Positions 907 to 49,547 of a stretch of DNA of 64,000 bases are shown one piece after another. This DNA comes from Candidatus Saccharicenans sp. (GTDB lineage: Bacteria > Acidobacteriota > Aminicenantia > Aminicenantales > Saccharicenantaceae), in contig DAOLNQ010000001.1 of the NCBI GenBank assembly GCA_035416665.1, positions 158,733 to 222,732 on the forward strand, given 5' to 3'. Made by a program: the position numbers and the translations under genes. Below the pieces are notes generated by a model. The model had not been told where the DNA came from. It did no database searches and was given only the letters and a program-made list of their open reading frames with translations. Position 1 is the stretch's first letter. The number at the start of each line of letters is the position of its first letter.

Positions 907-1284
907 TCAGGACTTTTTTCTGTGTTTTTCAATTACACCGAGCAGCAAATCGAAATTGACCGGCTTCTGAAAAACTCCATTAAAACCTAACTCGTCAAGA
1001 CCAATAGTTCGGGCGGTGGCATCACCGATAGTACTTAACAGAAAAACTGGCAGCTCAGGTTGTTCTTTCTTGATCACCCCGGCCACTTTTGCCCCGGCAT
1101 CTATGTCTTCCATCATCATATCGCATAGAACAATATCTGGATGAACCTGACGGAAAAGCTCAAGCCCTTCCTTCCCACTTAAGGCTGTGAACACCTCATA
1201 GCCACTGGCTTCCAGAATAGCTTTAACTGAAACACAAATAGCCGGATCGTCATCTATCACCAGAATTTTGGTTTTATCAGGCAT
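907..1284 (-). CDS. Single-domain response regulator (CheY-like receiver)
   Basis: KILVIDDD...VLCDMMM...KP is the receiver signature with the acidic pocket and a conserved Lys. The protein is 125 aa. Confidence 0.8.
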   Translation of the reverse strand: MPDKTKILVIDDDPAICVSVKAILEASGYEVFTALSGKEGLELFRQVHPDIVLCDMMMEDIDAGAKVAGVIKKEQPELPVFLLSTIGDATARTIGLDELGFNGVFQKPVNFDLLLGVIEKHRKKS

Positions 1285-1466
1285 TGGTTCCTCCTGAATT
1301 TATTAGACTTATATATAACACACAAAAAGGATTAAAGAAAGAGGAAGCTGGCAGCTATCTCTGGCTGAGCGGGAAGCCAGAGGAGCAAGTCAAACAGATA
1401 GCCAGTTTTGCCTCTACCGGGGAAAGCTTAAAATATCAGAAAGAAAAGATTGATGAAATAAAAAAA

Positions 1467-37070: not shown

Positions 37071-37907
37071 TCAAAAATAGCGGGAGGCAGCAGGGTGGTG
37101 GAGAATAAGGGCTGTCGTCGTCAGTTCTGGTACCAGCTGAAAAGTTTCTGTCAATGAGACGCCTATTCCCTTGCCGTCTAATAGCTCCAGAATCTTTTTC
37201 TGATCCTCAAGGCGCGGAAAAGAAGGGTAGCCAGGGCTGATTCTACGACCGCGGTATTTTTTCTTCAGGCAGGCATCATAATCCGGACTGCCTTCAGATT
37301 CCAGACCCAGTTCCTGCCTTATTCTAAAATGGAGATATTCTGCCAGAGCTTCGGTTAACTCCGCACCCAGACCATGCCAGAGAAAATAATCAGCATACTC
37401 GCCGCTAGTCCATTTTTCTTTAATAAAGGCCTCAAGTTTATGGCCCGTGGTCACCAGAGAAAAGGCCACGACATCCTTTTTTTCTGCTTCTCGGGGCAAA
37501 AAGAAATCAGCAGCACTTATCTCTGGAAAAGACTTAAGCAAAGGGAAACTGAAGACAAAGGGTGCCTCGTCACTCTCGTCCCTAAAGACCAGAAGCTTAT
37601 TTTTCTGGCGGCAGGCCGGAAAATAGCCATAGGCGGCCTGAAATTGTAGTAGCTTTTTGTGGCGAGCTTCTTCTAAAAAACCGGAAAGAAGTGCATCCGG
37701 AATGAGATGGGCGTTGACCGGCAGGCTGGTTTTGTCCTTCAACTGCCAGCGGGTGGAAATAAGGACTTTGACATTAAGGAAAGGCAGAACTTTCTCTGGC
37801 GATATTTTCTTTAAATGGCGGCTCCCCCAGAATGGTGGGTGTGGTATTTCCTCGGGGGCTAACCGCCTGATTTTAATCTCTTCTTTTGTCATTTCCCTGC
37901 TGTTCAT
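37071..37907 (-). CDS. Stand-alone methionine-synthase reactivation (AdoMet-binding) domain protein
   Basis: The C-terminus RRISPGYPSFPRLEDQKKILELLD...GVSLTETFQLVPELTTTALILHHPAASRYF parallels the MetH activation domain (...RVSPGYPACPDH...LTESFAMWP...SHP...YF). Confidence 0.75.
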   Translation of the reverse strand: MNSREMTKEEIKIRRLAPEEIPHPPFWGSRHLKKISPEKVLPFLNVKVLISTRWQLKDKTSLPVNAHLIPDALLSGFLEEARHKKLLQFQAAYGYFPACRQKNKLLVFRDESDEAPFVFSFPLLKSFPEISAADFFLPREAEKKDVVAFSLVTTGHKLEAFIKEKWTSGEYADYFLWHGLGAELTEALAEYLHFRIRQELGLESEGSPDYDACLKKKYRGRRISPGYPSFPRLEDQKKILELLDGKGIGVSLTETFQLVPELTTTALILHHPAASRYF

Positions 37908-38178
37908 CCTGTCATCCTTACTTCTGGCCTTTTGCCCTTTTAAATAATTCGCCTGGCTGAAGGGCTTGTCTTCTTTCCATTTCTTGCCTTTTTCTTGCCT
38001 TTACTCTCTTGAGCATGATATCCATTGTCCTCCACTAAGCCGGATCAGCCGGCATCATTCTCAGCCTGATAAAGAATTGACCAGAAAAATCAAAAGCAGA
38101 GACACAGACTCAAAAAGTTTACCCTCTATCCAACTTTTTTCCTCGTTCATAATCATAAGCTCTAACCTCGTTGAGCTT

Positions 38179-40746
38179 CTAGACATTAGCCCTGCCGGCT
38201 GATTTTTCTTTTTTCCCTGATAGATTTTTCATAATTTCTAAAGCGGCCATGGCATCCCGGCCATAATAAACCTCGCCTCCGTAGGCTGGTTTTAGAACTT
38301 TCTCCACAAAGCTCCGGTCCAGAGCTGCCCCGCCGCATAGAACCGGAACTTTAAGCCCATGTTCTCTTAACGTCTCCAGATAATCTTTCATCACCCAGCA
38401 GGATTTTACCAGCAAGCCACTCAAACCGACGGCCTGTGGTCTGAATTCTTCTATGGCTTTGATAATCTCTTCCACCTTCTGATTTATACCAAGATTAATA
38501 ACTTCAAAGCCATTGGCTTCAAGAATCAAAGCGACGAGATTCTTGCCGATATCATGGACATCACCCTGAACCGTAGCCAGGACAATTTTACCTTTTCTTT
38601 CTTCGCCGCTCCCCGCCGGAAGATATGGTTTGAGAACAGTCAAAGCTTTTTTAACCGTTTCAGCTGATTTAAGAACAAAGGGCAGCGGTAAATTCTGCTG
38701 GCTGAAAAGTTCACCGACTATGTCCATGCCTTTTAAAAGAAAATTATTGATTATCTCCAGCGGTGAATATTTTTTAAGAAGCTCCTGGATAAGGACCTCC
38801 ATTTGAACTGATTCTCCATTTACCACTGCTTCTACCAGGGCTTTCTCCGGTCGGACAGCCTGCCGTGAAGCTGACGGAGTTGTTGAAGTCAGCAAAAATT
38901 TTTCGCCCAGAAGCTCAGTGAGAGGGTCATAACCGGGGCGGCGGTGGTTTAGAATTAAATCCTGGCCCAGCTTTAAAATTTTCTCGGGTATTCTCTGAAG
39001 CGGCATTATTTTCGAATGATGAATAATCGCTGCATCGAGACCGGCCTTTAGCGCCAGGGATAAAAAAATAGAGTTTATATAAGGCCTGAGCTCGGCCGGC
39101 AAACCGTAAGAGACATTGCTTATGCCCAGAATCGTCTGACACTCTGGAAATCTTTCCTTAAGAAGCCTGATGGCAGTTAAAGTCTCCCGGGGAGCGTCAG
39201 CATAGTGATGGTCTCCGCTAGCCAGCGAAAGAGTCAGCGGATCAAAGAAAATATCAGAAGGCTTGAAATTATTTTTATTAACCAGAAGATCATAAAGTCT
39301 CAAAGCAACGCGCAGTTTTTCTTCGGCCTTAAGCGCCAGCCCATTCTCATCAATGGTCAGGGCAACGACTGCCGCCCCGAATTCCTTAGCCAGGTCTATC
39401 GTCTCCTGCGCCCGCTTCCCTCCATCTTCCAGGTTAATCGAGTTAATGATGACTTTACCACCGTAGTTTTTAAGCGCAGTCTCCAGAGCCGAAATATTAC
39501 TGCTATCAATCATGACGGGAATTTTGAGCTGGAGATTTAATGTCGGCATAAAAATTTTCCAGTCCGCTGCTTCCTCCCGGCCGGATGTGGCCAGAGCCAC
39601 ATCGGTCAGATGAGCTCCTTCCCGCTCGGCCTCGACTGCCACTTCCATCATCCCCTGAAAATTTTCTGAGAGCAGCAGTCGCCGGAAGGCCTGGCTCCCA
39701 TTGACATTGGTTCTCTCGGCAATAATTAAAGGCCGCGGCTTGACCCGAAAAGGCTGAGCTCTGAAGGTCGAAGCACAGCCGGGGGAAAAGCGGTAATGTC
39801 TCCGGACCGGATGAAGACCGTCAACTTCTCTTACCACCGCTTTTAAATGCTCGGGTGTTGTTCCGCAACAGCCGCCGACCAGACGCACCCCGAACTCCTC
39901 CACAAATCTTTTAATGTCCGTAGCTAGCTCTTCCGGAGAAAGATCATAGATGTATTTTCCCTCTTCTAGAACCGGACGTCCGGCATTGGGCAGAGCCGAA
40001 AGAAGAAAAGGTGAATTCTTTTTTAACTGCCGCAGCGCCTCAACCATAGCCTGCGGACCATCGCCGCAATTCAGTCCTAAAGAAAAAAGAGGAAAACTGG
40101 AAAGAGCCGTGATGAGGGTCAGCATGTCTGTTCCCAGAAGAAGACACCCCGCCTTATCCACCGTCACCGTGACCATCACCGGCAGTCGCTGATTTTTTTC
40201 TTTTTGAACCCTGAAAATAGCAGCCAGTGCGGCTTTTATCTGGAGAAGATCCTGGGCAGTTTCGATCTGAAGAAGATCCACCCCACCTTCGACGAGACCC
40301 GAGACCTGCTCGTAATAAGAATCTTTCAATTTATCAAAACCGATCTGTCCCAGGCTGGGCAACTTTTTCCCCGGTCCAATTGAGCCCGAAACAAATCTCG
40401 GGCGCGAAGCGGTGGTAAAAGAAGAGGCAATTTCCTTAGCCAGCCGGGCGGCGGCCAGATTAATCTCGTAAGCTTTATCCCCGAGGCCGTATTCTTCCAG
40501 GACAGCGCGATTAGCTCCAAACGTATTGGTTTCAATAACTTCACAACCGGCTTCAAGAAAAGAAGCATGGACTTCACCTACCACCTGCGGCCGGGAAAGG
40601 TTAAGAATTTCATAGCAACCTTCCTTTCCGCGGAAATCGTCTGGCGTTAGACTGAATTTCTGGAGACTGGTGCCCATAGCGCCATCAAAAATTATGACCT
40701 TCTCTTTAGCTATATTTTCAATCCGGCTCTGTTTTCTTTTTCTCAT
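38179..40746 (-). CDS. metH: Cobalamin-dependent methionine synthase core (Hcy, pterin and B12 domains; no reactivation domain)
   Basis: Hcy-binding N-terminus (IIFDGAMGT), pterin-binding TIM barrel, and a B12 cap plus Rossmann fold with GDVHDIGKNLV (DxHxxG). At 855 aa it is about 370 aa shorter than E. coli MetH. Confidence 0.9.
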   Translation of the reverse strand: MRKRKQSRIENIAKEKVIIFDGAMGTSLQKFSLTPDDFRGKEGCYEILNLSRPQVVGEVHASFLEAGCEVIETNTFGANRAVLEEYGLGDKAYEINLAAARLAKEIASSFTTASRPRFVSGSIGPGKKLPSLGQIGFDKLKDSYYEQVSGLVEGGVDLLQIETAQDLLQIKAALAAIFRVQKEKNQRLPVMVTVTVDKAGCLLLGTDMLTLITALSSFPLFSLGLNCGDGPQAMVEALRQLKKNSPFLLSALPNAGRPVLEEGKYIYDLSPEELATDIKRFVEEFGVRLVGGCCGTTPEHLKAVVREVDGLHPVRRHYRFSPGCASTFRAQPFRVKPRPLIIAERTNVNGSQAFRRLLLSENFQGMMEVAVEAEREGAHLTDVALATSGREEAADWKIFMPTLNLQLKIPVMIDSSNISALETALKNYGGKVIINSINLEDGGKRAQETIDLAKEFGAAVVALTIDENGLALKAEEKLRVALRLYDLLVNKNNFKPSDIFFDPLTLSLASGDHHYADAPRETLTAIRLLKERFPECQTILGISNVSYGLPAELRPYINSIFLSLALKAGLDAAIIHHSKIMPLQRIPEKILKLGQDLILNHRRPGYDPLTELLGEKFLLTSTTPSASRQAVRPEKALVEAVVNGESVQMEVLIQELLKKYSPLEIINNFLLKGMDIVGELFSQQNLPLPFVLKSAETVKKALTVLKPYLPAGSGEERKGKIVLATVQGDVHDIGKNLVALILEANGFEVINLGINQKVEEIIKAIEEFRPQAVGLSGLLVKSCWVMKDYLETLREHGLKVPVLCGGAALDRSFVEKVLKPAYGGEVYYGRDAMAALEIMKNLSGKKEKSAGRANV

Positions 40747-40787
40747 TTATCATCTCCTCTTTTTCCTGCCTTCCCTATTTGCTTTAT

Positions 40788-41741
40788 TTACTTTTTGAAC
40801 AAGATTCTTAACAAGTCTATCACCGGGTCCTTCTGACTCATGGTAAAAATATGAATTCCGGGAGCGCCTGCCTCCAGTAATTTTTCAGCCAGTTCCAGAC
40901 CAAACTTCAAGCCGGTTTTCTTCTCCTCTTCAGCCGTCCGGCAGGCTTCGAAAGCCTCGACCATGGCCGGTGGCAGGCTGACTCCAAAAGTGGCTGGTAT
41001 TTTTGCCAGCTGCTTTTGATTATAGAGCAGTTTAAAACCAGGTATAACCGGCACCTTTATCCCGGCTTTCTTTAAACGGCCAAGATAATTTTGATAAGTT
41101 TCGGCTGAAAAAAACATCTGGGTAATAATAAATCGGGCGCCGGCCTCAACTTTCTCCTGGAGATGTAACAGATCAAACTCCACGCTCGGCGACTCAGGAT
41201 GCTTTTCCGGATAACCAGCAACGCCGCAGCAAAAATCAGTCGCCGCCGCTGGTTTCGCTCCTTCCAGGTAATAACCGTGATTTAAATTATCAATCTGCCT
41301 GACCAGTTCACAGGCATGGGCGTGGCCGCCAGGCTCCGGTCTGAATTCTTTTTCCCCTGGTTGCGGATCGCCGCGGATGACAAATATATTCTCGAGTCCC
41401 AGATAGTGAAGTTCAAGCAGAGCATCTTCGAGTTCATAGCGGTTAAAACCGGCACAGATCAGATGCGGCACCGTTTCTACCCCGAATTTGTGCTTCAGGC
41501 TGGCCGAAATGGCTACTGTCCCCGGTCTTCGCTGGCGGCGGATCTTAATTTCCTGACCATTTTCGACCGACCACCCATTTTGAGGCTGGTGAAAAGTCAC
41601 ACTGATAAAGAGAGGATCAAATTCAAGAAAAGGATCAATCAGGTGATAGAGTTCCTCGACATTTGAACCTTTATCGGGCGGTAGAATTTCGAGCGACAGA
41701 ACTGGCTTTTTTCTGCCGATCAGGGCTTCGCTTACTTTCAT
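40788..41741 (-). CDS. metF: 5,10-methylenetetrahydrofolate reductase
   Basis: MetF-family TIM barrel (LSLEILPP..., FISVTF..., HLICAG). AGGAGG RBS. Confidence 0.85.
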   Translation of the reverse strand: MKVSEALIGRKKPVLSLEILPPDKGSNVEELYHLIDPFLEFDPLFISVTFHQPQNGWSVENGQEIKIRRQRRPGTVAISASLKHKFGVETVPHLICAGFNRYELEDALLELHYLGLENIFVIRGDPQPGEKEFRPEPGGHAHACELVRQIDNLNHGYYLEGAKPAAATDFCCGVAGYPEKHPESPSVEFDLLHLQEKVEAGARFIITQMFFSAETYQNYLGRLKKAGIKVPVIPGFKLLYNQKQLAKIPATFGVSLPPAMVEAFEACRTAEEEKKTGLKFGLELAEKLLEAGAPGIHIFTMSQKDPVIDLLRILFKK

Positions 41742-42195: not shown

Positions 42196-43869
42196 TTGAA
42201 AAAACAGGCCTATAATTTTCTAAAGCTTCAGGCCGAGCGAGACAAGGCGAGTAAGCAGGAGAGAGGAGAGCTTATTCAGCTGTTTCCGTCCGAGTCTGAT
42301 ATTCCCGAAAAATTCCGCCTGAATTCTAATCTCGACCAGCACCGGGTTCTCATCGATGGGCAGATTATTCCCTGGAAGGGGGCTCTAGCTGAGGTATTTT
42401 CTCCTATTTATATCAAAAACGGTGATTCCTTAGACAGAAAAAGGATTGGCTCGTATCCTGCAATGACCCGCCAGGCGGCACTGAAGGCACTGGATTCCGC
42501 CAGAAGGGCTTTTTCTTCTGGAAACGGAACATGGCCTTCATTTCCTCTCTCCAGGCGGATCGAATCGATTGAAAAGTTTCTGGAACGATTAGAAAACCAG
42601 AAAGAAAACATTCTCAGAACTCTGCTGTGGGAAATCGCCAAGCCTTACCATGAACTGGAAGATGAATTTGAAAGAACCAGGCAATATATTGAACAGGTAA
42701 TCAAGGTTGCCGGTCAGAAAGAAAAAGATTCCTTTCTGCTAAAAAAGGAAAAAGGAATCTTAGGCCTTATCCATAATGAACCCTATGGAATCGCTCTGTG
42801 TCTGGGACCGTATAACTATCCCCTTTTTGAAACTTTCAGCCTGGTTTTACCTGCTCTCTTAGCGGGTAATGTGGTGATAATCAAACCCCCCAAATTTGGA
42901 GTGTTGTTTTTTGACTTTTTGTTAGAAGCTTTTCAGGACTGCTTCCCGCCGGGTGCAGTGAACATCATTTCTGGCGATGGTAAAAAGATTATTGAACCGC
43001 TGATGAAAAGTGGAGAGGTAGATGTTCTGGCTTTTATCGGTTCAGCTGAGACTGCTAACCGCTTGATCAGTCTGCACCCCAGAAAAAATAGATTACATAG
43101 CTTATTGGGTCTCGGTGCAAAAAACGCGGCGATAGTTTTGCCTGATGCCGACCTCGATGTGGTTGTCGCGGAATCGGTTTTAGGAGCACTGGCTTTCAAC
43201 GGCCAGCGCTGTGCAGCTTTGAAAATATTTTTTGTGCATAAAGAAATTGAGGCAACTTTCAGAAAACGGCTGCTTGATGCCGTGAGCAAAATTAACCTGG
43301 GAATGCCCTGGATGGAAAGGGTAAGGATCACACCGATAGTTGACCCCGAGCGGCTTCCCTATCTGCATGAACTGGTCAGGGAGGCCCTCAATAAAGGAGC
43401 CAGGATAGGTAACAAAAATGGTGGAAGATCACTCGAATCAATTTTTGTCCCGGCTGTTTTGTATCAAGTCAATTCAAAAATGAGGATTTACTGGGAAGAA
43501 CAATTCGGACCAATTATACCCGTTGTCTCTTACCACGATATAAAAGAACCGGTAACTTATATCAGTAATTCTCCCTTCGGACAGCAGTTGAGCATTTTTG
43601 GTACAAAAACCAAGACATTGATAGAGCTGATTGATCTGGTCAAAAACCAGGTATCACGGGTAAATATTAATACCAAATGCCAGCGCGGTCCTGATCTTTT
43701 CCCTTTCACCGGTAAAAAAGATTCGGCTCACGGAGATTTTTCAATTTTGAATATCCTCGATTATTTCTCATCGCAAGCTGTCGTAGCAGCAAGAGAAACT
43801 GAGCTCAGCGAAGCTCTCTTCCAAAGCCTTCAACAACCAAAACATTTAGATATAAACCAGGGATCATGA
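42196..43869 (+). CDS. GapN-like aldehyde dehydrogenase-family protein (557 aa) with the general-base Glu of the ELGGK motif apparently replaced by Gly
   Basis: Colinear with non-phosphorylating GAPDH/ALDH: GPYNYP, AGNVVIIKPP, catalytic Cys in FNGQRCAALK, EEQFGP, and INTKCQRGPDLFPFTGKKDSAHG. The segment aligned to xLELGGKxxxIV reads SLLGLGAKNAAIV. Confidence 0.8.
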   Translation: MKKQAYNFLKLQAERDKASKQERGELIQLFPSESDIPEKFRLNSNLDQHRVLIDGQIIPWKGALAEVFSPIYIKNGDSLDRKRIGSYPAMTRQAALKALDSARRAFSSGNGTWPSFPLSRRIESIEKFLERLENQKENILRTLLWEIAKPYHELEDEFERTRQYIEQVIKVAGQKEKDSFLLKKEKGILGLIHNEPYGIALCLGPYNYPLFETFSLVLPALLAGNVVIIKPPKFGVLFFDFLLEAFQDCFPPGAVNIISGDGKKIIEPLMKSGEVDVLAFIGSAETANRLISLHPRKNRLHSLLGLGAKNAAIVLPDADLDVVVAESVLGALAFNGQRCAALKIFFVHKEIEATFRKRLLDAVSKINLGMPWMERVRITPIVDPERLPYLHELVREALNKGARIGNKNGGRSLESIFVPAVLYQVNSKMRIYWEEQFGPIIPVVSYHDIKEPVTYISNSPFGQQLSIFGTKTKTLIELIDLVKNQVSRVNINTKCQRGPDLFPFTGKKDSAHGDFSILNILDYFSSQAVVAARETELSEALFQSLQQPKHLDINQGS

Positions 43870-46800
43870 GTAAAGAGAAAACAACTGAAAATTTACAGTC
43901 AGCAATGAGCATTTCATCCGGGGGTGCTGGTGGAATAACCATTCCAGCCAGGCATCTCAGTCTTCTGGACTTGTTCACTGACTTTTATGGAACTCATAAG
44001 CGGCTAAAAGAATTTCTGGAAAAGTTTCATCAACCGCACACTCAGAGCGACCAGCTGGCAGAAGAACTCAGGGGAATCAGCCTCGGAGATTTCTACAAAT
44101 ACAACTTTAACGACCAGGGGCAGCTGGCCCTGCAAATCCTGGCTGAAATTTATGCCGAACTAATTAATCGGGAAAACAGCGGGCCGGTTAAAGAAAAAAT
44201 TATCGGCTATTTTTTTGAATATCTAAGGAAAATACTGGAGGACAGTAGAGAGCATCTCTCCCGAAATATCCCGGTTGTCCTCTGGGCTCTGGATTTCCTG
44301 CGGCAGAGACCTGAGGAAGAATCCGGATCGATGAAAAAAATCACCAGAGACCTGAAAGCTATTCTTAAATTTTTTATTGATGCCGGTCTGCAAGTTCCGG
44401 TCTATAATCTGGCAGAGCTAAGCTATCGCGCCTTTCGGGCATCTTTTAACTTCTGGCTGCAGCAGCCTGATCCGCTTCGTGAATTTATTGAGTTCAATGG
44501 GCAGGCCGAGGCCCGGGCCAGATATCAATCACTGGTCGCCCCGATCAGCCATGATCATCTACGGTTACTGTTGAGGCGGTTGGAAGAGGCTTTTCCCCCG
44601 GCCAGTTTGGAAAACTATGAGGCCTTTAAAATTTATTTAGAACTTCCCGATTACTATCAAATCGCCGACGGCTATCTAAGAATCGCCCACGAGCTAGAGG
44701 TGGCCCCCTTAGATAACCAGCGAGGAGAATCTTTCCATGTTGATTTCCTGTTAAAAATCATCAGCTTACCTGCCCTCCAGGACATTCATCGTGAAGCGCT
44801 GATGGAAATCAACCGTTCATTCGGCCGTGCCCTGGCAGAGAAATCCGCACCAGAAGCCGAAGAATTTATCAGAAAGATGTTCCAGGTGCTGCGGGAAAAC
44901 ACTGCCTCCAGCCACCATACTGAGACCATTTTTAGCTTTATTAATGCTGCCGCCCGGGAGGTCTTTAAGCTCAACCAGCATTCCCTGGTCAATACTCTTA
45001 TCGAGGAAATTATTCTTTTCGGATTTCAATCACCCAATATTCAAGGTACAACAACTGATTGGGAAGTAAAATTTAATCCTTGGCATATCAAGAATATTCG
45101 TTCCTGGCTCGAGATTATTAGGCTGAAGCCCCGCTGGACAAAACAGCTGCTATCAGCCTTGATCATCAACCTTAAAATCGGAGGCGTCTTTGTCCGGGAT
45201 ACTGATCTTTTGCAGAAAGATATTTCTGCCCTTCTAAATTCAGATATCACTCCTGCCTTTAACCTGATCATGCAACTGGCCAGACTGCTTCCGATTTTTT
45301 TCAATGAAATCAATGCTGAAGGCGAACTGCGGGAGGTCTCGATCCGCATGGATGACATTACTGGCCGCCGCGATCCCCTGATTCATTTTGTCAGAAAACA
45401 ATCTCATGTAGAAAGTAACAGTAGGCTTATTCCTTTTGTTGAGGCTATTGTTCGCTACTGGTATTCTGGAAACAAAGAAGACATCCGCCCCTTCCTGCCC
45501 GAGGAGGTTTATGAACAAATTGAAGGCTGTTCAGAGATATACGAAGGGATGCATAAAATCTTTAGGGTGCTCTACAAGGAGGTCCATCAGAATCCGCGCC
45601 TTTTTCTGCAGTGGGAACCATCTAAAATTCAGAGGATTATCCAGAAAATCCCCAAGGTAACAGACGACGATAAGGAAAAGGCTATTCTGGTCCTGCGTTT
45701 TTATCAATTGCTCTATAAAAAATACAACATTCATTATCAGGATGTGATCAAAAGCCTGCAATCTTCATATATTTTTGACCAACAGAAGCTGACCTCCTTG
45801 CAGAAAGCCCTCTTACGGAAAGATTATTACCAGAGTCTGGTTATACTTATGGATTTTCTGAGTCTCTTAAAAGAGCGTATTGTTTCTCCGGAAAAAACAG
45901 AAGCCTTTGAAGATATTTATCATAAAAGACACATTGCGGCCGGCATCCCGTCCATGTATGGTGTCTATCGTGAGCCCAAATTCGATGCTCTTGGCCTTTA
46001 TCTCAGGTTACAATGTCTGGCCAACGTCCTTCTGGAACAGCTCATCAATTCCCTCAATATCCAGTTCATCACCAAAACCACTCTGGTAAAAATTGATAAA
46101 TATCTTCGTCTGTTTATCAAGGCCCTTCAACTGGAAGGGATTTCCACAGAAGGGCTTGAATCAAAGACGAAATATCTCCAGGGAGCTCTCCAAATCAAAC
46201 GTTTTAGCCTCGATCAATACATTGATATCTTCCGTTTCATTTCCAGGGGTATCCAGGATATCATCCGGCTCTACTACATAGACCCTCATCAGGCCAATCT
46301 CCGGATAGTAATTCGGCAGTTTCTGGCCAGACAGTATGGTGATAAAATGACCAGCCTGTCCAGAGAGGAAGAGGAAGCAGCAGTCTATATGCAGACCGAG
46401 AATTTTCTGCGCTCAATTATTGCCTCAAGTTTTGGGCTGCAGACGCTCGATAACTTTATCAGCAATATTCTCAAAACACTTTGCGCTGAACAAGAGAAAT
46501 TCAAAACTCACAGCCACATGTTGAATATTCTGATGAGTTACAATCCAGAGATAATCATCACGCCTCTTTACAAGAAGCCACAAAAAAAAGATGACCAAAT
46601 TCTTCTTGGTAATAAAGGCTATTTTCTCAAGCAACTTTATTCTCTCAGTTTCCCCGTTCCCCCGGGCTTTGTGCTGACCACAGAAATTTTTAGATGCCTG
46701 GAGGCTATTCTTGGTTACCAGGAAATTTACCAGGATATGAACATGAGGCTCAAGCGCGAACTTAAAAAGCTGGAAAAAATAACCCGCCGGCGCTATGGTC

Positions 46801-48086
46801 ACCCTCAAAATCCTTTACTGCTGTCCGTGAGAAGCGGCTCGGCCATCTCTCTGCCAGGCATGATGAGCTCATTTCTGAATGTCGGTATCAATGAGGAAAT
46901 TGCTGAAGGTTTGAGTCAGAAAAAGGGCTATGCCTGGGCCGCCTGGGATTGCTACCGCCGTTTTCTTCAGTTCTGGGGTATGTCAGAGGGCCTGGACCGT
47001 GATTTCTTTGATGAAATCATCGATGATTTTAAGGAAAAATATAACGTCTCCAAAAAGCTATATTTCACTCCCGATCAAATGCGCGAGATCGCCCTTGCTT
47101 ATAGAAAAGCGCTCGAGGATAGTGGAATCGCGGTTGAAGATGACCCGCCTGAACAGCTGAGAAAAGCTATTTTCAAAGTAATTGAGTCCTGGCATTCTCC
47201 TCGAGCCAAATTGTACCGACAAGAAATGAACATTTCAGACAAGTGGGGGACAGCTGTTGTTGTTCAGTCGATGGTCTTCGGTAATCTGGACGAATGGTCT
47301 GGTTCAGGAGTTACCTTTACCCGTGATCCTAAGGGCCTGTCAAGTTCTGTTCTTCTTTCAGGTGATTTCATTTTCGGAGGTCAGGGTGACGATATAGTAG
47401 CCGGACTGGTAGAAACATATCCTATTTCCGAAGCTCAAAGGAAAAGCGAAAAAAGAGACAGCGAAATTTCTTTAGAAAACAAGTTTCCAGCTGTTTATGC
47501 CGAGTTGAAGCGCCTGGCAGAAATATTGATTTACGACCAGGGTTTCGGTCACCAGGAGATTGAATTTACCTTTGAAAATAATTCCAGGGAAGGACTGTAT
47601 ATCCTGCAGACTCGTGATATGCCGCCGCCGGAACGCTTCAAGTTGAAGTCTTTCACCAGAACACCCAAGCTGGAGAAGTCTCTGATCGGATATGGCATCG
47701 GTATTGGCGGCGGAGCGCTGTGCGGAAGAGCTGTTTTCTCCGAGCAGGAAATCAAATTTTTCAGCCAGAAAGAACCTCAGACCCCTTTAATTTTAATTCG
47801 CCCGGACACTGTTCCCGACGACATCGGACTCCTGCGGCAGGTTGACGGATTACTGACCGCTAAAGGAGGAAGCACTTCCCATGCTGCAGTTATAATTCCT
47901 CAGCTAAAAAAAGTTGGCGTAGTTGGTCTCAGGAACCTGAAAGTCTATGAGAAGAACGGCTACAGCCTGATCAACGGATACAAGATCAATAGCGGCGATT
48001 TTATCGGCATTGATGGCTGGAGCGGCTCTGTTTACCTCGGCAAGCACCAGATTGAAGAAAAAGCAATAACTCCCGCCCGAATATGA
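43866..48086 (+). CDS. 1406-aa protein with an N-terminal ~870-aa uncharacterised helical region and a C-terminal pyruvate-phosphate-dikinase-like ATP-grasp domain plus phosphohistidine swivel domain; the PEP/pyruvate TIM barrel is absent
   Basis: From about nt 46600 the protein is colinear with the PPDK N-terminus: LLGNKGYF, PLLLSVRSGSAISLPGMMSSFLNVGINEE, YRRFLQFWG, WHSPRAKLYRQEMNISDKWGTAVVVQSMVFGN, SGSGVTFTRDP, GLYILQTRDM. The His domain is at GLLTAKGGSTSHAAVI. The ATG overlaps the upstream TGA (ATGA). Confidence 0.8.
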   Translation: MSKEKTTENLQSAMSISSGGAGGITIPARHLSLLDLFTDFYGTHKRLKEFLEKFHQPHTQSDQLAEELRGISLGDFYKYNFNDQGQLALQILAEIYAELINRENSGPVKEKIIGYFFEYLRKILEDSREHLSRNIPVVLWALDFLRQRPEEESGSMKKITRDLKAILKFFIDAGLQVPVYNLAELSYRAFRASFNFWLQQPDPLREFIEFNGQAEARARYQSLVAPISHDHLRLLLRRLEEAFPPASLENYEAFKIYLELPDYYQIADGYLRIAHELEVAPLDNQRGESFHVDFLLKIISLPALQDIHREALMEINRSFGRALAEKSAPEAEEFIRKMFQVLRENTASSHHTETIFSFINAAAREVFKLNQHSLVNTLIEEIILFGFQSPNIQGTTTDWEVKFNPWHIKNIRSWLEIIRLKPRWTKQLLSALIINLKIGGVFVRDTDLLQKDISALLNSDITPAFNLIMQLARLLPIFFNEINAEGELREVSIRMDDITGRRDPLIHFVRKQSHVESNSRLIPFVEAIVRYWYSGNKEDIRPFLPEEVYEQIEGCSEIYEGMHKIFRVLYKEVHQNPRLFLQWEPSKIQRIIQKIPKVTDDDKEKAILVLRFYQLLYKKYNIHYQDVIKSLQSSYIFDQQKLTSLQKALLRKDYYQSLVILMDFLSLLKERIVSPEKTEAFEDIYHKRHIAAGIPSMYGVYREPKFDALGLYLRLQCLANVLLEQLINSLNIQFITKTTLVKIDKYLRLFIKALQLEGISTEGLESKTKYLQGALQIKRFSLDQYIDIFRFISRGIQDIIRLYYIDPHQANLRIVIRQFLARQYGDKMTSLSREEEEAAVYMQTENFLRSIIASSFGLQTLDNFISNILKTLCAEQEKFKTHSHMLNILMSYNPEIIITPLYKKPQKKDDQILLGNKGYFLKQLYSLSFPVPPGFVLTTEIFRCLEAILGYQEIYQDMNMRLKRELKKLEKITRRRYGHPQNPLLLSVRSGSAISLPGMMSSFLNVGINEEIAEGLSQKKGYAWAAWDCYRRFLQFWGMSEGLDRDFFDEIIDDFKEKYNVSKKLYFTPDQMREIALAYRKALEDSGIAVEDDPPEQLRKAIFKVIESWHSPRAKLYRQEMNISDKWGTAVVVQSMVFGNLDEWSGSGVTFTRDPKGLSSSVLLSGDFIFGGQGDDIVAGLVETYPISEAQRKSEKRDSEISLENKFPAVYAELKRLAEILIYDQGFGHQEIEFTFENNSREGLYILQTRDMPPPERFKLKSFTRTPKLEKSLIGYGIGIGGGALCGRAVFSEQEIKFFSQKEPQTPLILIRPDTVPDDIGLLRQVDGLLTAKGGSTSHAAVIIPQLKKVGVVGLRNLKVYEKNGYSLINGYKINSGDFIGIDGWSGSVYLGKHQIEEKAITPARI

Positions 48087-48099
48087 AACTCAGGCCATC

Positions 48100-49377
48100 T
48101 TATTTCATCATTTTGTGAACATAGACGGCTAAATCGCCCATCCGGTTGGTATAGCTTCCGTATTCATTGTCGTACCAGCCAAAAATCTTGGCATGAACTA
48201 CCGGAATCTTCAGGGTCTTAAGAGGAAAAGAATCCAGAACCTCCGGGGAAAGCCCGGGAATATGGGCGAGGTTAACATCAATAAAAGCCGTTCTGGTATG
48301 ATTAAATTGGCCCTCAATAACGATCGAAGCATTAATACCAGCTACGTCCGCTGAAACATTTTGTTCTTCCGAGTAAACAAGCAGGCGCTCCGGATCCTTA
48401 GCTTCAGCCTGTTTATAAATATCATTAATGGTCTCAGTATCAATATGGCTGATTTCCCCATCCTGTCCCATCTGGCTTTGAAAAGTCACGTTTAAGATAA
48501 TCAGTGACTCAGTCTTGGTAGGTATTCTGATAGAATCGGCCATGAACCCAATCTCTTTCACTTCTGGTATGGCCAGGGCCAGGGCTTCAGCCGCATTGGT
48601 GGAAGTCAGAATGATATTGTCCAGGATGCTCCTTGATTTTCTCAAATCTTTGGCTCCGGCCTTCGGAACGCTGTCCAGGACGCACTGAGAGTTTGTAACC
48701 GCATGCACGGTGGACATGGAGGCTGTCAGCATACAACGGGTCTTTTCATTTTCCAGAAGGGGTTTTATCATATGGGCCAGACCCGTAGTCGTACAGGAAG
48801 CAGCCGAAATCAGGGTATGCTGACCAGGATTGAAGGCCTGGTGATTTATTCCATAAATCAAGGTTACCGCATCTTCAGGCATCGGCAAAGCTTTATTTTT
48901 AATCTTGAAGGCAGCTGAATTGATGACTACCTTCGCTCCAGCCAGATGATGACCGCGGATGGCACCTTTTTCGCTATCCGGACTGGCGGTCGGGTCAAGG
49001 AATTCACCCGTGCACTCAGCCACCAGCTCAACTCCATAGTCCCGCCAGGAAATATCCTTAGGATTCCGGGCCTTCCTTAAAACTGTAACCGGGATTCCGT
49101 CTATAAGTAGTTTCCCCTCCTTTTCGTCAGCGATTTTGACGATCGGCTGGGCATTGATCCCGTATAAAAAGGTATGGATCAGCCCATAAGTTGAATCCTT
49201 CTCGATGGTTTGAGCCACTGCCTCCATGCCCATTCCGATTTCCCGGCCCTGATTGACAACGATTTCCTTAAAATATTTTCTCCCGACGTGATGCCACAAA
49301 GTAAGCTTGCCAATCCTTCCTAACCCGTTGATTCCCAGGACGGGTTTCTTCTCAGCAAAAAAATCAGTCCCGTTCAT
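48100..49377 (-). CDS. Divergent glyceraldehyde-3-phosphate dehydrogenase-family protein (425 aa, ~90 aa of insertions)
   Basis: GINGLGRIGK NAD loop, catalytic SAASCTTTGLAH, STVHAVT (His176 equivalent), RKSR (Arg231 region), and C-terminal WYDNEYGSYTNRMGDL. AGGAG RBS 7 nt before the ATG. Confidence 0.8.
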   Translation of the reverse strand: MNGTDFFAEKKPVLGINGLGRIGKLTLWHHVGRKYFKEIVVNQGREIGMGMEAVAQTIEKDSTYGLIHTFLYGINAQPIVKIADEKEGKLLIDGIPVTVLRKARNPKDISWRDYGVELVAECTGEFLDPTASPDSEKGAIRGHHLAGAKVVINSAAFKIKNKALPMPEDAVTLIYGINHQAFNPGQHTLISAASCTTTGLAHMIKPLLENEKTRCMLTASMSTVHAVTNSQCVLDSVPKAGAKDLRKSRSILDNIILTSTNAAEALALAIPEVKEIGFMADSIRIPTKTESLIILNVTFQSQMGQDGEISHIDTETINDIYKQAEAKDPERLLVYSEEQNVSADVAGINASIVIEGQFNHTRTAFIDVNLAHIPGLSPEVLDSFPLKTLKIPVVHAKIFGWYDNEYGSYTNRMGDLAVYVHKMMK

Positions 49378-49547
49378 TAACCTCTCCTTACAATATTTTT
49401 CCAGTCATGTCAGACTGGCTATTTTGCTATTTATAATAAAAAAATCAAACCATCTGTGAGGCACAGACCCAAAAATCCTTTTAGCAACACCACTGCCTTG
49501 AAAGACTATTTTCTTCTGGTATTGCTGCTGTCATCATTCTAACGGGA

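Follow-up and report, generated by a model that had tools for sequence, protein, structure and literature searches.

Is the long glyceraldehyde-3-phosphate dehydrogenase (GAPDH) gene of a Candidatus Saccharicenans genome the ordinary glycolytic enzyme of its host or something else, and with which protein does it work? The stretch analysed here, referred to below as the window, comprises 64,000 nucleotides of contig DAOLNQ010000001.1, and the gene in question, on its minus strand, encodes a 425-residue protein named GAP425. An earlier reading made from the letters of the window (the sequence-only reading) had taken it for a likely specialised GAPDH paralog, possibly linked to two neighbours, an aldehyde dehydrogenase (ALDH) and a protein resembling pyruvate, phosphate dikinase (PPDK). 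Judged by search scores, length and tree position, GAP425 belongs to a distinct, length-conserved (~425 aa) GAPDH subfamily, and its sole conserved genomic partner is the PPDK-derived dikinase, named DIK. We propose, tentatively and at somewhat less than an even chance, that GAP425 and DIK form a coupled GAPDH-type enzyme/dikinase system, which in relatives often lies among gap, pgk and tpi.

A long-form GAPDH and its relatives

The gene and its translation start signal are located as follows.

48100..49377, minus strand: GAP425, long-form type-I GAPDH paralog of 425 aa (open reading frame (ORF) with ATG start, domain and structure matches, alignments)
49381..49389, minus strand: Shine-Dalgarno sequence AAGGAGAGG, 3 nt before the GAP425 ATG, strong, read from the sequence

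With a ribosome-binding site and both GAPDH domains (Pfam Gp_dh_N, E = 2.3e-15; Gp_dh_C, E = 1.7e-17), GAP425 is a real gene. The type-I GAPDH model TIGR01534 matched it with E = 4e-84, and a PDB sequence search returned 140 distinct GAPDH chain sequences at E ≤ 1e-3, headed by the Thermus enzyme 1vc2 (5e-32); these family matches are far beyond chance. The TIGR01534 score was below the curated cutoff of that model (282.6 vs 367.2 bits), as were the scores against the Epd models TIGR01532 and NF010058 (95.2 and 89.3 bits vs 530.55 and 539), the ArsJ-associated GAPDH model NF033735, which was the second-best NCBIfam match (153.5 bits vs 450), and the long GAPDH family PRK08289/NF006139 (97.6 bits vs 431). 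Ten distant long-form representatives scored 90–319 bits against TIGR01534, all under the 367.2 cutoff, and reached no NCBIfam cutoff for GAPDH, Epd, ArsJ-associated GAPDH or PRK08289 either. Epd, ArsJ-associated GAPDH and PRK08289 were each considered as identities for GAP425 and rejected on scores far under the respective cutoffs; in the ArsJ case, arsJ was also absent among the neighbours (dikinase, ALDH, SppA-like peptidase).

A word-indexed search with GAP425 produced 7,925 significant matches, the best 120 of which were 421–429 aa long at 67–98% identity and bore the names Syntrophales, Syntrophus, Smithella, Syntrophorhabdus, Thermodesulfobacteriota and Aminicenantes. An exhaustive search of 50%-identity representatives recovered 85 sequences at E ≤ 1e-30, in which full-length long forms (377–451 aa, 31–55% identity) scored at least 140 bits and canonical enzymes of ~335 aa appeared from ~115 bits down. 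In a rough neighbour-joining tree without bootstrap, the canonical GAPDHs formed one clade, including those encoded beside a long form, and the long family of the window formed a separate tight clade. The sequence-only reading had left room for GAP425 to group with ordinary GAPDHs; by the score gap and the tree, it does not. Two relatives at 88–89% identity (loci L003 and L004) came from metagenome-assembled genomes (MAGs) labelled 'Eubacteriales' and 'Bathyarchaeia archaeon', at odds with their Acidobacteriota-type gene content, and these labels probably reflect mis-binning or mislabelling.

The residue comparison drew on 191 members of the family together with 14 of the distant long forms and 22 canonical GAPDHs. 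Residues are numbered here by the usual Geobacillus stearothermophilus convention, mapped through alignments to PDB and canonical GAPDHs. GAP425 carries the motifs SAASCTTTG (Cys195, equivalent to Cys149), STVHAVT (His225, equivalent to His176) and GWYDNEYGSY, and the type-I catalytic motifs ascribed to it at the outset, namely Cys149, His176 and the WYDNE motif, are thus all present. Cys149, His176, Thr179, Thr208, Arg231, Asn313 and Glu314 were invariant in 191 of 191 family members, and further invariants were the GxGxxG loop, Ser148, Thr150, Arg194, Arg197 and the WYDNE motif. Because the catalytic and substrate-binding residues are invariant in the family, GAP425 should be a catalytically intact Cys/His-dependent dehydrogenase of the GAPDH fold, predicted to be active as a thiol enzyme on a phosphorylated substrate.

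The arginine cluster, also said to be retained, is so only in part: Arg194, Arg197 and Arg231 are kept, and the substrate/phosphate-binding Arg195 is replaced by lysine (Lys247 in GAP425), as in 189 of the 191 members. Gly209 is replaced by asparagine in 187 of 191 (Asn261 in GAP425). The NAD-specifying Asp32 is glutamine in GAP425 (Gln43) and Gln, Ile, Leu or Val across the family, never acidic (Asp in 0/191), with a conserved G-R-E-x-G insert right after this position. Asn152 to Thr, Asp181 to Ser/Thr and Pro205 to Leu are other family-specific changes; the canonical comparison sequences retain Asp32, Arg195 and Gly209.

Since Thr179, Arg231, Ser148, Thr150 and Thr208 are kept, GAP425 would be expected to act on glyceraldehyde-3-phosphate (G3P) or a very similar phosphorylated aldehyde or acyl-phosphate. 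Enzymes that accept NADP(H) are usually marked by loss of Asp32 together with a Gly-Arg after strand β-2, and GAP425, with its conserved Gly-Arg insert there, is therefore probably an NADP(H) enzyme, or at least one not bound strictly to NAD. Lys195 and Asn209 would alter the classical phosphate sites, and the anion site for inorganic phosphate (Pi) may consequently be remodelled.

Such remodelling (Lys195, Asn209, Thr152), inserts near the active-site region and scores under the cutoffs of all G3P-specific models would also suit an acyl-phosphate reductase of a non-glycolytic pathway, acting on another aldehyde-phosphate or acyl-phosphate (erythrose-4-phosphate, as in Epd, or the product of the dikinase). 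However, the Epd models fit far worse than the GAPDH model (95 and 89 vs 283 bits), and the recurrent neighbours, which are gap, pgk, tpi and a GapN-like enzyme with G3P phosphate-binding arginines, point to C3 phosphates; we give a non-glycolytic substrate only a slim chance.

When GAP425 was aligned with canonical GAPDHs from related loci, its extra length amounted to 96 residues in ten segments distributed over both the NAD-binding and the catalytic domain, in good agreement with the earlier estimate of about 90 aa inserted in both domains.

GAP425 residues 3-12, 44-48, 69-82, 135-142, 159-167, 213-215, 239-242, 279-281, 301-309 and 363-393: inserts, placed by alignment

The largest insert (31 residues, 363–393) lies immediately before the WYDNE motif. 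Mean conservation of the inserts within the family was 0.67, vs 0.83 for the core, and invariant residues of the insert regions include Gly44, Arg45, Phe157, His360, Arg362 and His395. As the inserts are conserved and carry invariant residues, we regard them as functional parts of the enzyme and not as loose loops.

Genomic partners of the subfamily

The context sample consisted of 80 genome loci with GAP425 relatives (66–99% identity), to which the window was added (81 in total), with ORFs called and clustered. The closest locus, at 99% identity, belonged to an 'Acidobacteriota bacterium' MAG. DIK of the window is 100% identical to a protein listed by NCBI under 'Candidatus Saccharicenans sp.', in keeping with an Aminicenantes-type Acidobacteriota from anaerobic digesters (JGI samples). 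In the window, DIK and GAP425 face each other across a very short gap.

43866..48086, plus strand: DIK, PPDK-derived dikinase of 1406 aa (domain, alignment and predicted structure)
48087..48099, no strand assigned: 13-bp spacer between the convergent DIK and GAP425 stops, into which no terminator hairpin fits and in which none is predicted

DIK adjoins the long GAPDH in 71 of the 81 loci (window counted), the two genes being nearly always convergent, with a stop-to-stop spacer of ≤ 222 bp in 65 of the 71 (median 78 bp). Every other neighbour family occurred in 11 loci at most, and the remaining neighbourhood was variable. Look-ups made in the opposite direction, anchored on five DIK proteins (45–100% identity), found the long GAPDH in five out of five, convergent and downstream. 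The proposed linkage of GAP425 to its neighbours is supported, with the weight shifted to the PPDK-like partner (71/81), the GapN-like ALDH being lineage-restricted.

A different layout was seen on a metagenomic contig of 72% GC (L088, 2360..7753), where DIK and the long GAPDH are arranged in tandem on one strand; both genes are broken across three reading frames there, which may be due to long-read errors or may mark them as pseudogenes. Given this tandem layout in the 72%-GC lineage vs convergence elsewhere, the association of DIK with GAP425 is independent of gene geometry, and it spans at least two phyla. A 682-aa protein (P0293), considered as a natural DIK-GAPDH fusion, was rejected, being the frameshift-ridden tandem pair of L088 with its parts fused by the gene caller. 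Carriers of the pair include a cultured organism, Syntrophorhabdus aromaticivorans UI (L022).

Some additional features of the locus can be recorded here. With a 13-bp spacer and no terminator, the DIK and GAP425 transcripts would overlap at their 3' ends. Rfam matches over the whole window were limited to four tRNAs, with no riboswitch in the vicinity of the module. A promoter/terminator scan gave counts no better than those in shuffled sequence. A defence or mobile-element setting for GAP425 was considered and dismissed, with nothing in its support. In 11 loci (e.g. L055, 15790..16932) the neighbouring gene upstream of DIK on its own strand encodes a calcineurin-like metallophosphoesterase (~380 aa).

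Clustering of the ORFs of the window revealed no pgk, no tpi and no second gap anywhere in its 64 kb, in line with the earlier remark that neither pgk nor tpi lies beside the gene. In relatives, a canonical gap (332–342 aa, with Asp32, Arg195 and Gly209 kept) was found within 10 kb of the long form in 14 of the 80 loci and additionally in L082, making 15; among further canonical copies, one was truncated at 240 aa where its contig stops and one was called as 361 aa. Near the pair, pgk was present in 8 loci and tpi, encoding TIM, in 11. Two gene orders recurred: gap > GAP425 > < DIK > tpi in L050 (8897..16500) and L068 (8957..16495), and GAP425 > < DIK < gap in L021, L042, L044, L049, L053, L058, L065 and L082. 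Because a canonical gap coexists with it in 15 related loci, the long form is, at the level of the family, a paralog beside canonical gap, an extra enzyme set within the metabolism of triose phosphates. The view of GAP425 as a specialised paralog was thus borne out for the family as a whole, with its 421–429-aa subfamily, sub-cutoff scores, separate clade and 15 loci with canonical gap. In L050 and L068 the pair occupies the usual place of pgk within a gap-pgk-tpi cluster, and no pgk was found within those loci.

For the Saccharicenans genome itself, the lack of any other gap, pgk or tpi in the 64-kb window could mean that GAP425 is the sole phosphorylating, housekeeping GAPDH of this saccharolytic fermenter and that its inserts are lineage decoration. 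The catalytic residues are intact, as that would demand, and the GapN-like ALDH, having no hydrolytic base, may not be able to substitute. Nevertheless, the family spans phyla and stands beside a canonical gap in 15 related loci, GAP425 groups apart from the canonical GAPDHs, and its 282.6 bits fall under the TIGR01534 cutoff of 367.2; a housekeeping role is on these grounds very improbable.

A more serious competitor is suggested by Bacillus subtilis, in which GapB exists beside GapA. GapB-type enzymes are NADP(H)-dependent, gluconeogenic and ~340 aa long, and are not known to carry inserts of this kind or to have a dikinase partner. Like GapB, the long form in relatives accompanies a canonical GAPDH, and it has lost Asp32, which suggests NADP(H) use. 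It might accordingly be an anabolic, NADPH-preferring GAPDH that works with an ordinary phosphoglycerate kinase (PGK), the adjacency of the dikinase reflecting shared regulation or pathway context, for instance gluconeogenesis from pyruvate or phosphoenolpyruvate (PEP). This would agree with the intact catalytic set and the loss of Asp32 in 191/191 members, with the coexistence of canonical gap, pgk and tpi in some loci, and with the origin of the dikinase from PPDK, itself a gluconeogenic/glycolytic switch enzyme. It leaves unexplained, however, the ~96 conserved extra residues, Lys195 and Asn209; moreover, the dikinase cannot be PPDK, as its PEP/pyruvate domain is absent, and pairing with DIK in 71 of 81 loci compares with at most 11 for any real gluconeogenic gene. 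We consider a GapB-like role unlikely, although it carries appreciable weight.

The dikinase, the GapN-like dehydrogenase and a possible coupling

The domains of DIK and the gene preceding it are given below.

DIK residues 1-~900 (43866..46600), plus strand: novel all-alpha N-domain (predicted structure, pLDDT 82)
DIK residues ~907-1251, plus strand: PPDK ATP/AMP-binding domain
DIK residues ~1307-1386, plus strand: phospho-His swivel domain with GGSTSHAAV
42196..43869, plus strand: GapN-like ALDH of 557 aa, its stop overlapping the DIK start by 4 bp (ATGA)

The C-terminal 506 residues of DIK aligned with Clostridium symbiosum PPDK (1kbl) with 248 bits over positions 16–520, in blocks 16–337 and 389–517. 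The ATP-grasp motifs are kept and GGSTSHAAV is nearly invariant among 51 homologs. Only the PPDK_N and PEP-utilizers mobile domains were found; the PEP/pyruvate TIM-barrel domain is absent, the protein ending after the His domain, and the score against the PPDK model TIGR01828 was below its cutoff (355 vs 843 bits). From these motifs DIK looks competent, by prediction, but without an acceptor domain of its own. The first ~900 residues had no Pfam match and nothing significant in a PDB sequence search, and the region is known solely in a fixed architecture of ~1,400 aa. Structural neighbours of the predicted, solenoid-like N-domain were only protein-binding repeats of the HEAT/ARM type, with no specific relative, and the long, near-invariant motifs within it include KRHIAAGIPSMYG and RWTKxLLSALIINLKxGGVFVRDTDLLQKDISALLNSDI.

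The 11 best PDB matches of the ALDH were all non-phosphorylating GapN enzymes (195–227 bits, vs ≤ 137 for other ALDH classes), although its score against NF040869 was below the cutoff (201 vs 780 bits). Aligned to the GapN structures, the ALDH keeps Arg301-Cys302 (GQRCAA) and QRGPDxFPF (QRGPDLFPF in the window), and it has glycine in place of Glu268 (LGLGAKN vs LELGGKD of GapN, the ELGGK motif). Gly at 268 was found in every DIK-linked ALDH ortholog examined, including a distant high-GC one (L083). Glu268 is the general base for hydrolytic deacylation (PMC8160307). The ALDH of the window therefore probably cannot hydrolyse its thioester, and the substitution suggests a non-hydrolytic, acyl-transferring enzyme.

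This ALDH accompanies the pair only in an Aminicenantes-type subset and one more distant lineage. Across the 80 loci, the same-strand gene upstream of DIK was a canonical gap in 8 and a GapN-like ALDH in 5, as well as in the window, and the DIK-anchored look-ups contributed one more of each (gap in L082, ALDH in L083). The pattern is consistent with a dikinase that acts on a product or intermediate of G3P oxidation.

The all-alpha, solenoid-like character of the 900-aa N-domain with its HEAT/ARM-type neighbours, and the fact that three types of G3P dehydrogenase flank DIK in different lineages, would also be compatible with a regulatory, protein-directed phosphotransferase, whose N-domain docks GAP425, Gap or ALDH in order to phosphorylate or otherwise control them, with GAP425 as target or sensor. 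Enzyme I of the phosphotransferase system, whose His domain donates phosphate to HPr, offers a model. Against this, long near-invariant N-domain motifs (KRHIAAGIPSMYG, RWTKxLLSALIINLK) suit an active or ligand-binding site better than a scaffold, and we know of no PPDK-type ATP-grasp enzyme that phosphorylates proteins. Regulation by DIK appears quite improbable to us.

In the coupled system that we favour, GAP425 would work with the dikinase, which has no small-molecule-binding domain of its own. DIK would move phosphate between ATP/AMP (with pyrophosphate (PPi) and/or Pi), the swivel His, and 3-phosphoglycerate, 1,3-bisphosphoglycerate or a 3-phosphoglyceroyl acyl-enzyme, and the couple would constitute an AMP-linked analogue of GAPDH/PGK. 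It could run in an ATP-driven, irreversible reductive direction, or in a PPi-scavenging, ATP-yielding oxidative direction, in energy-limited anaerobes. In its most specific form the proposal is of a two-protein system, joined in some lineages by the non-hydrolysing ALDH, that couples G3P redox chemistry to AMP/ATP (+ PPi/Pi) through phospho-His, a '3-phosphoglycerate (or 3-phosphoglyceroyl-enzyme), phosphate dikinase' parallel to PGK; stated so precisely, it is rather unlikely to be right.

Several points weigh against coupling. The substrate and cofactor preference of GAP425 are read from a few residues, and the helical-repeat N-domain of DIK would fit regulation or protein binding just as well as catalysis. 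About 10 of the 81 loci have no adjacent dikinase. DIK and GAP425 are convergent and not co-transcribed, an uncommon arrangement for genes whose products are tightly coupled. In at least 8 loci a PGK gene lies close to the pair, which means that the dikinase is no simple PGK replacement. An AlphaFold2 model of GAP425, built from a 55-sequence family alignment, had a pLDDT of 58.5, with the catalytic domain below 50, and was too poor to place the inserts. In the searchable literature nothing relevant was found on the GAP425-dikinase pairing or on a long GAPDH family; searches on Saccharicenans and on Aminicenantes GAPDH likewise brought no gene-level information.

Relation to known enzymes and significance

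The steps of lower glycolysis (GAPDH/PGK, GapN and GAPOR) are regarded as fully catalogued. With type I GAPDH (GapA; 1GD1 of G. stearothermophilus, 1VC2 of Thermus) GAP425 shares the Gp_dh_N/Gp_dh_C layout and the catalytic residues; unlike GapA, it is ~96 aa longer, is changed at Asp32, Arg195, Gly209, Asn152 and Pro205, stands in a clade of its own and, in relatives, occurs alongside a canonical Gap. The ArsJ-associated GAPDH provides a parallel of a paralog specialised through its genomic partner and through unusual acyl-anhydride chemistry (a chemistry that for GAP425 is proposed), but the partner here is a dikinase and not a transporter. The PRK08289 family (~480 aa) likewise has a GAPDH fold much longer than 335 aa, but most of its excess consists of ~130 aa added at the N-terminus (the match to its model begins at profile position 133), whereas the inserts of GAP425 are spread through the protein. 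DIK has in common with PPDK (TIGR01828, 1KBL) the ATP-grasp nucleotide domain and the phospho-His swivel domain (GGxTSHAAV), and differs from it in having no PEP/pyruvate TIM-barrel and in its novel 900-aa helical N-terminal domain. The ALDH of the window shares Arg301-Cys302 and QRGxDxFPF with GapN (1EUH, 2ESD, 3PRL, 9DLA), from which the change of Glu268 to Gly and an N-terminal extension of ~75 aa set it apart. The fold and the core chemistry were already known; in the searchable literature we found no description of the subfamily, of its conserved inserts, of the changes at its cofactor and anion sites or of its fixed pairing with a domain-swapped dikinase.

A GAPDH subfamily locked to a dikinase that is devoid of the pyruvate/PEP domain suggests an additional enzyme couple at the triose-phosphate node, and there is a realistic prospect of the pair being a new enzyme system. 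The long GAPDH subfamily comprises thousands of metagenomic sequences and has at least one cultured carrier; its carriers dominate anaerobic digesters and sediments and live near the thermodynamic limit. Should the proposal be true, energy-starved syntrophs and fermenters would gain from a phospho-His couple either additional ATP at the expense of PPi or a gluconeogenic step that is irreversible. As both proteins are auto-annotated plainly as 'GAPDH' and 'pyruvate, phosphate dikinase', GAP425 and DIK are probably mis-assigned when the metabolism of Syntrophales, Syntrophorhabdales and Aminicenantes is reconstructed.

A few observations unrelated to the pair were made along the way. The representative search with GAP425 also returned two unrelated proteins: P0269, a curiosity of 2089 aa with four GAPDH units and a PGK domain, and P0354, a multi-domain protein of 1455 aa with two GAPDH units and HEAT repeats. 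Elsewhere in the window (37071..41741, minus strand), methionine synthase looks split, with an 855-aa MetH lacking the activation domain and a separate 278-aa Met_synt_B12 protein (37071..37907) representing that domain; MTHFR adjoins, and [NiFe]-hydrogenase and maturation genes are situated further upstream of the methionine synthase genes (Pfam labels in both cases from the identical locus L085).

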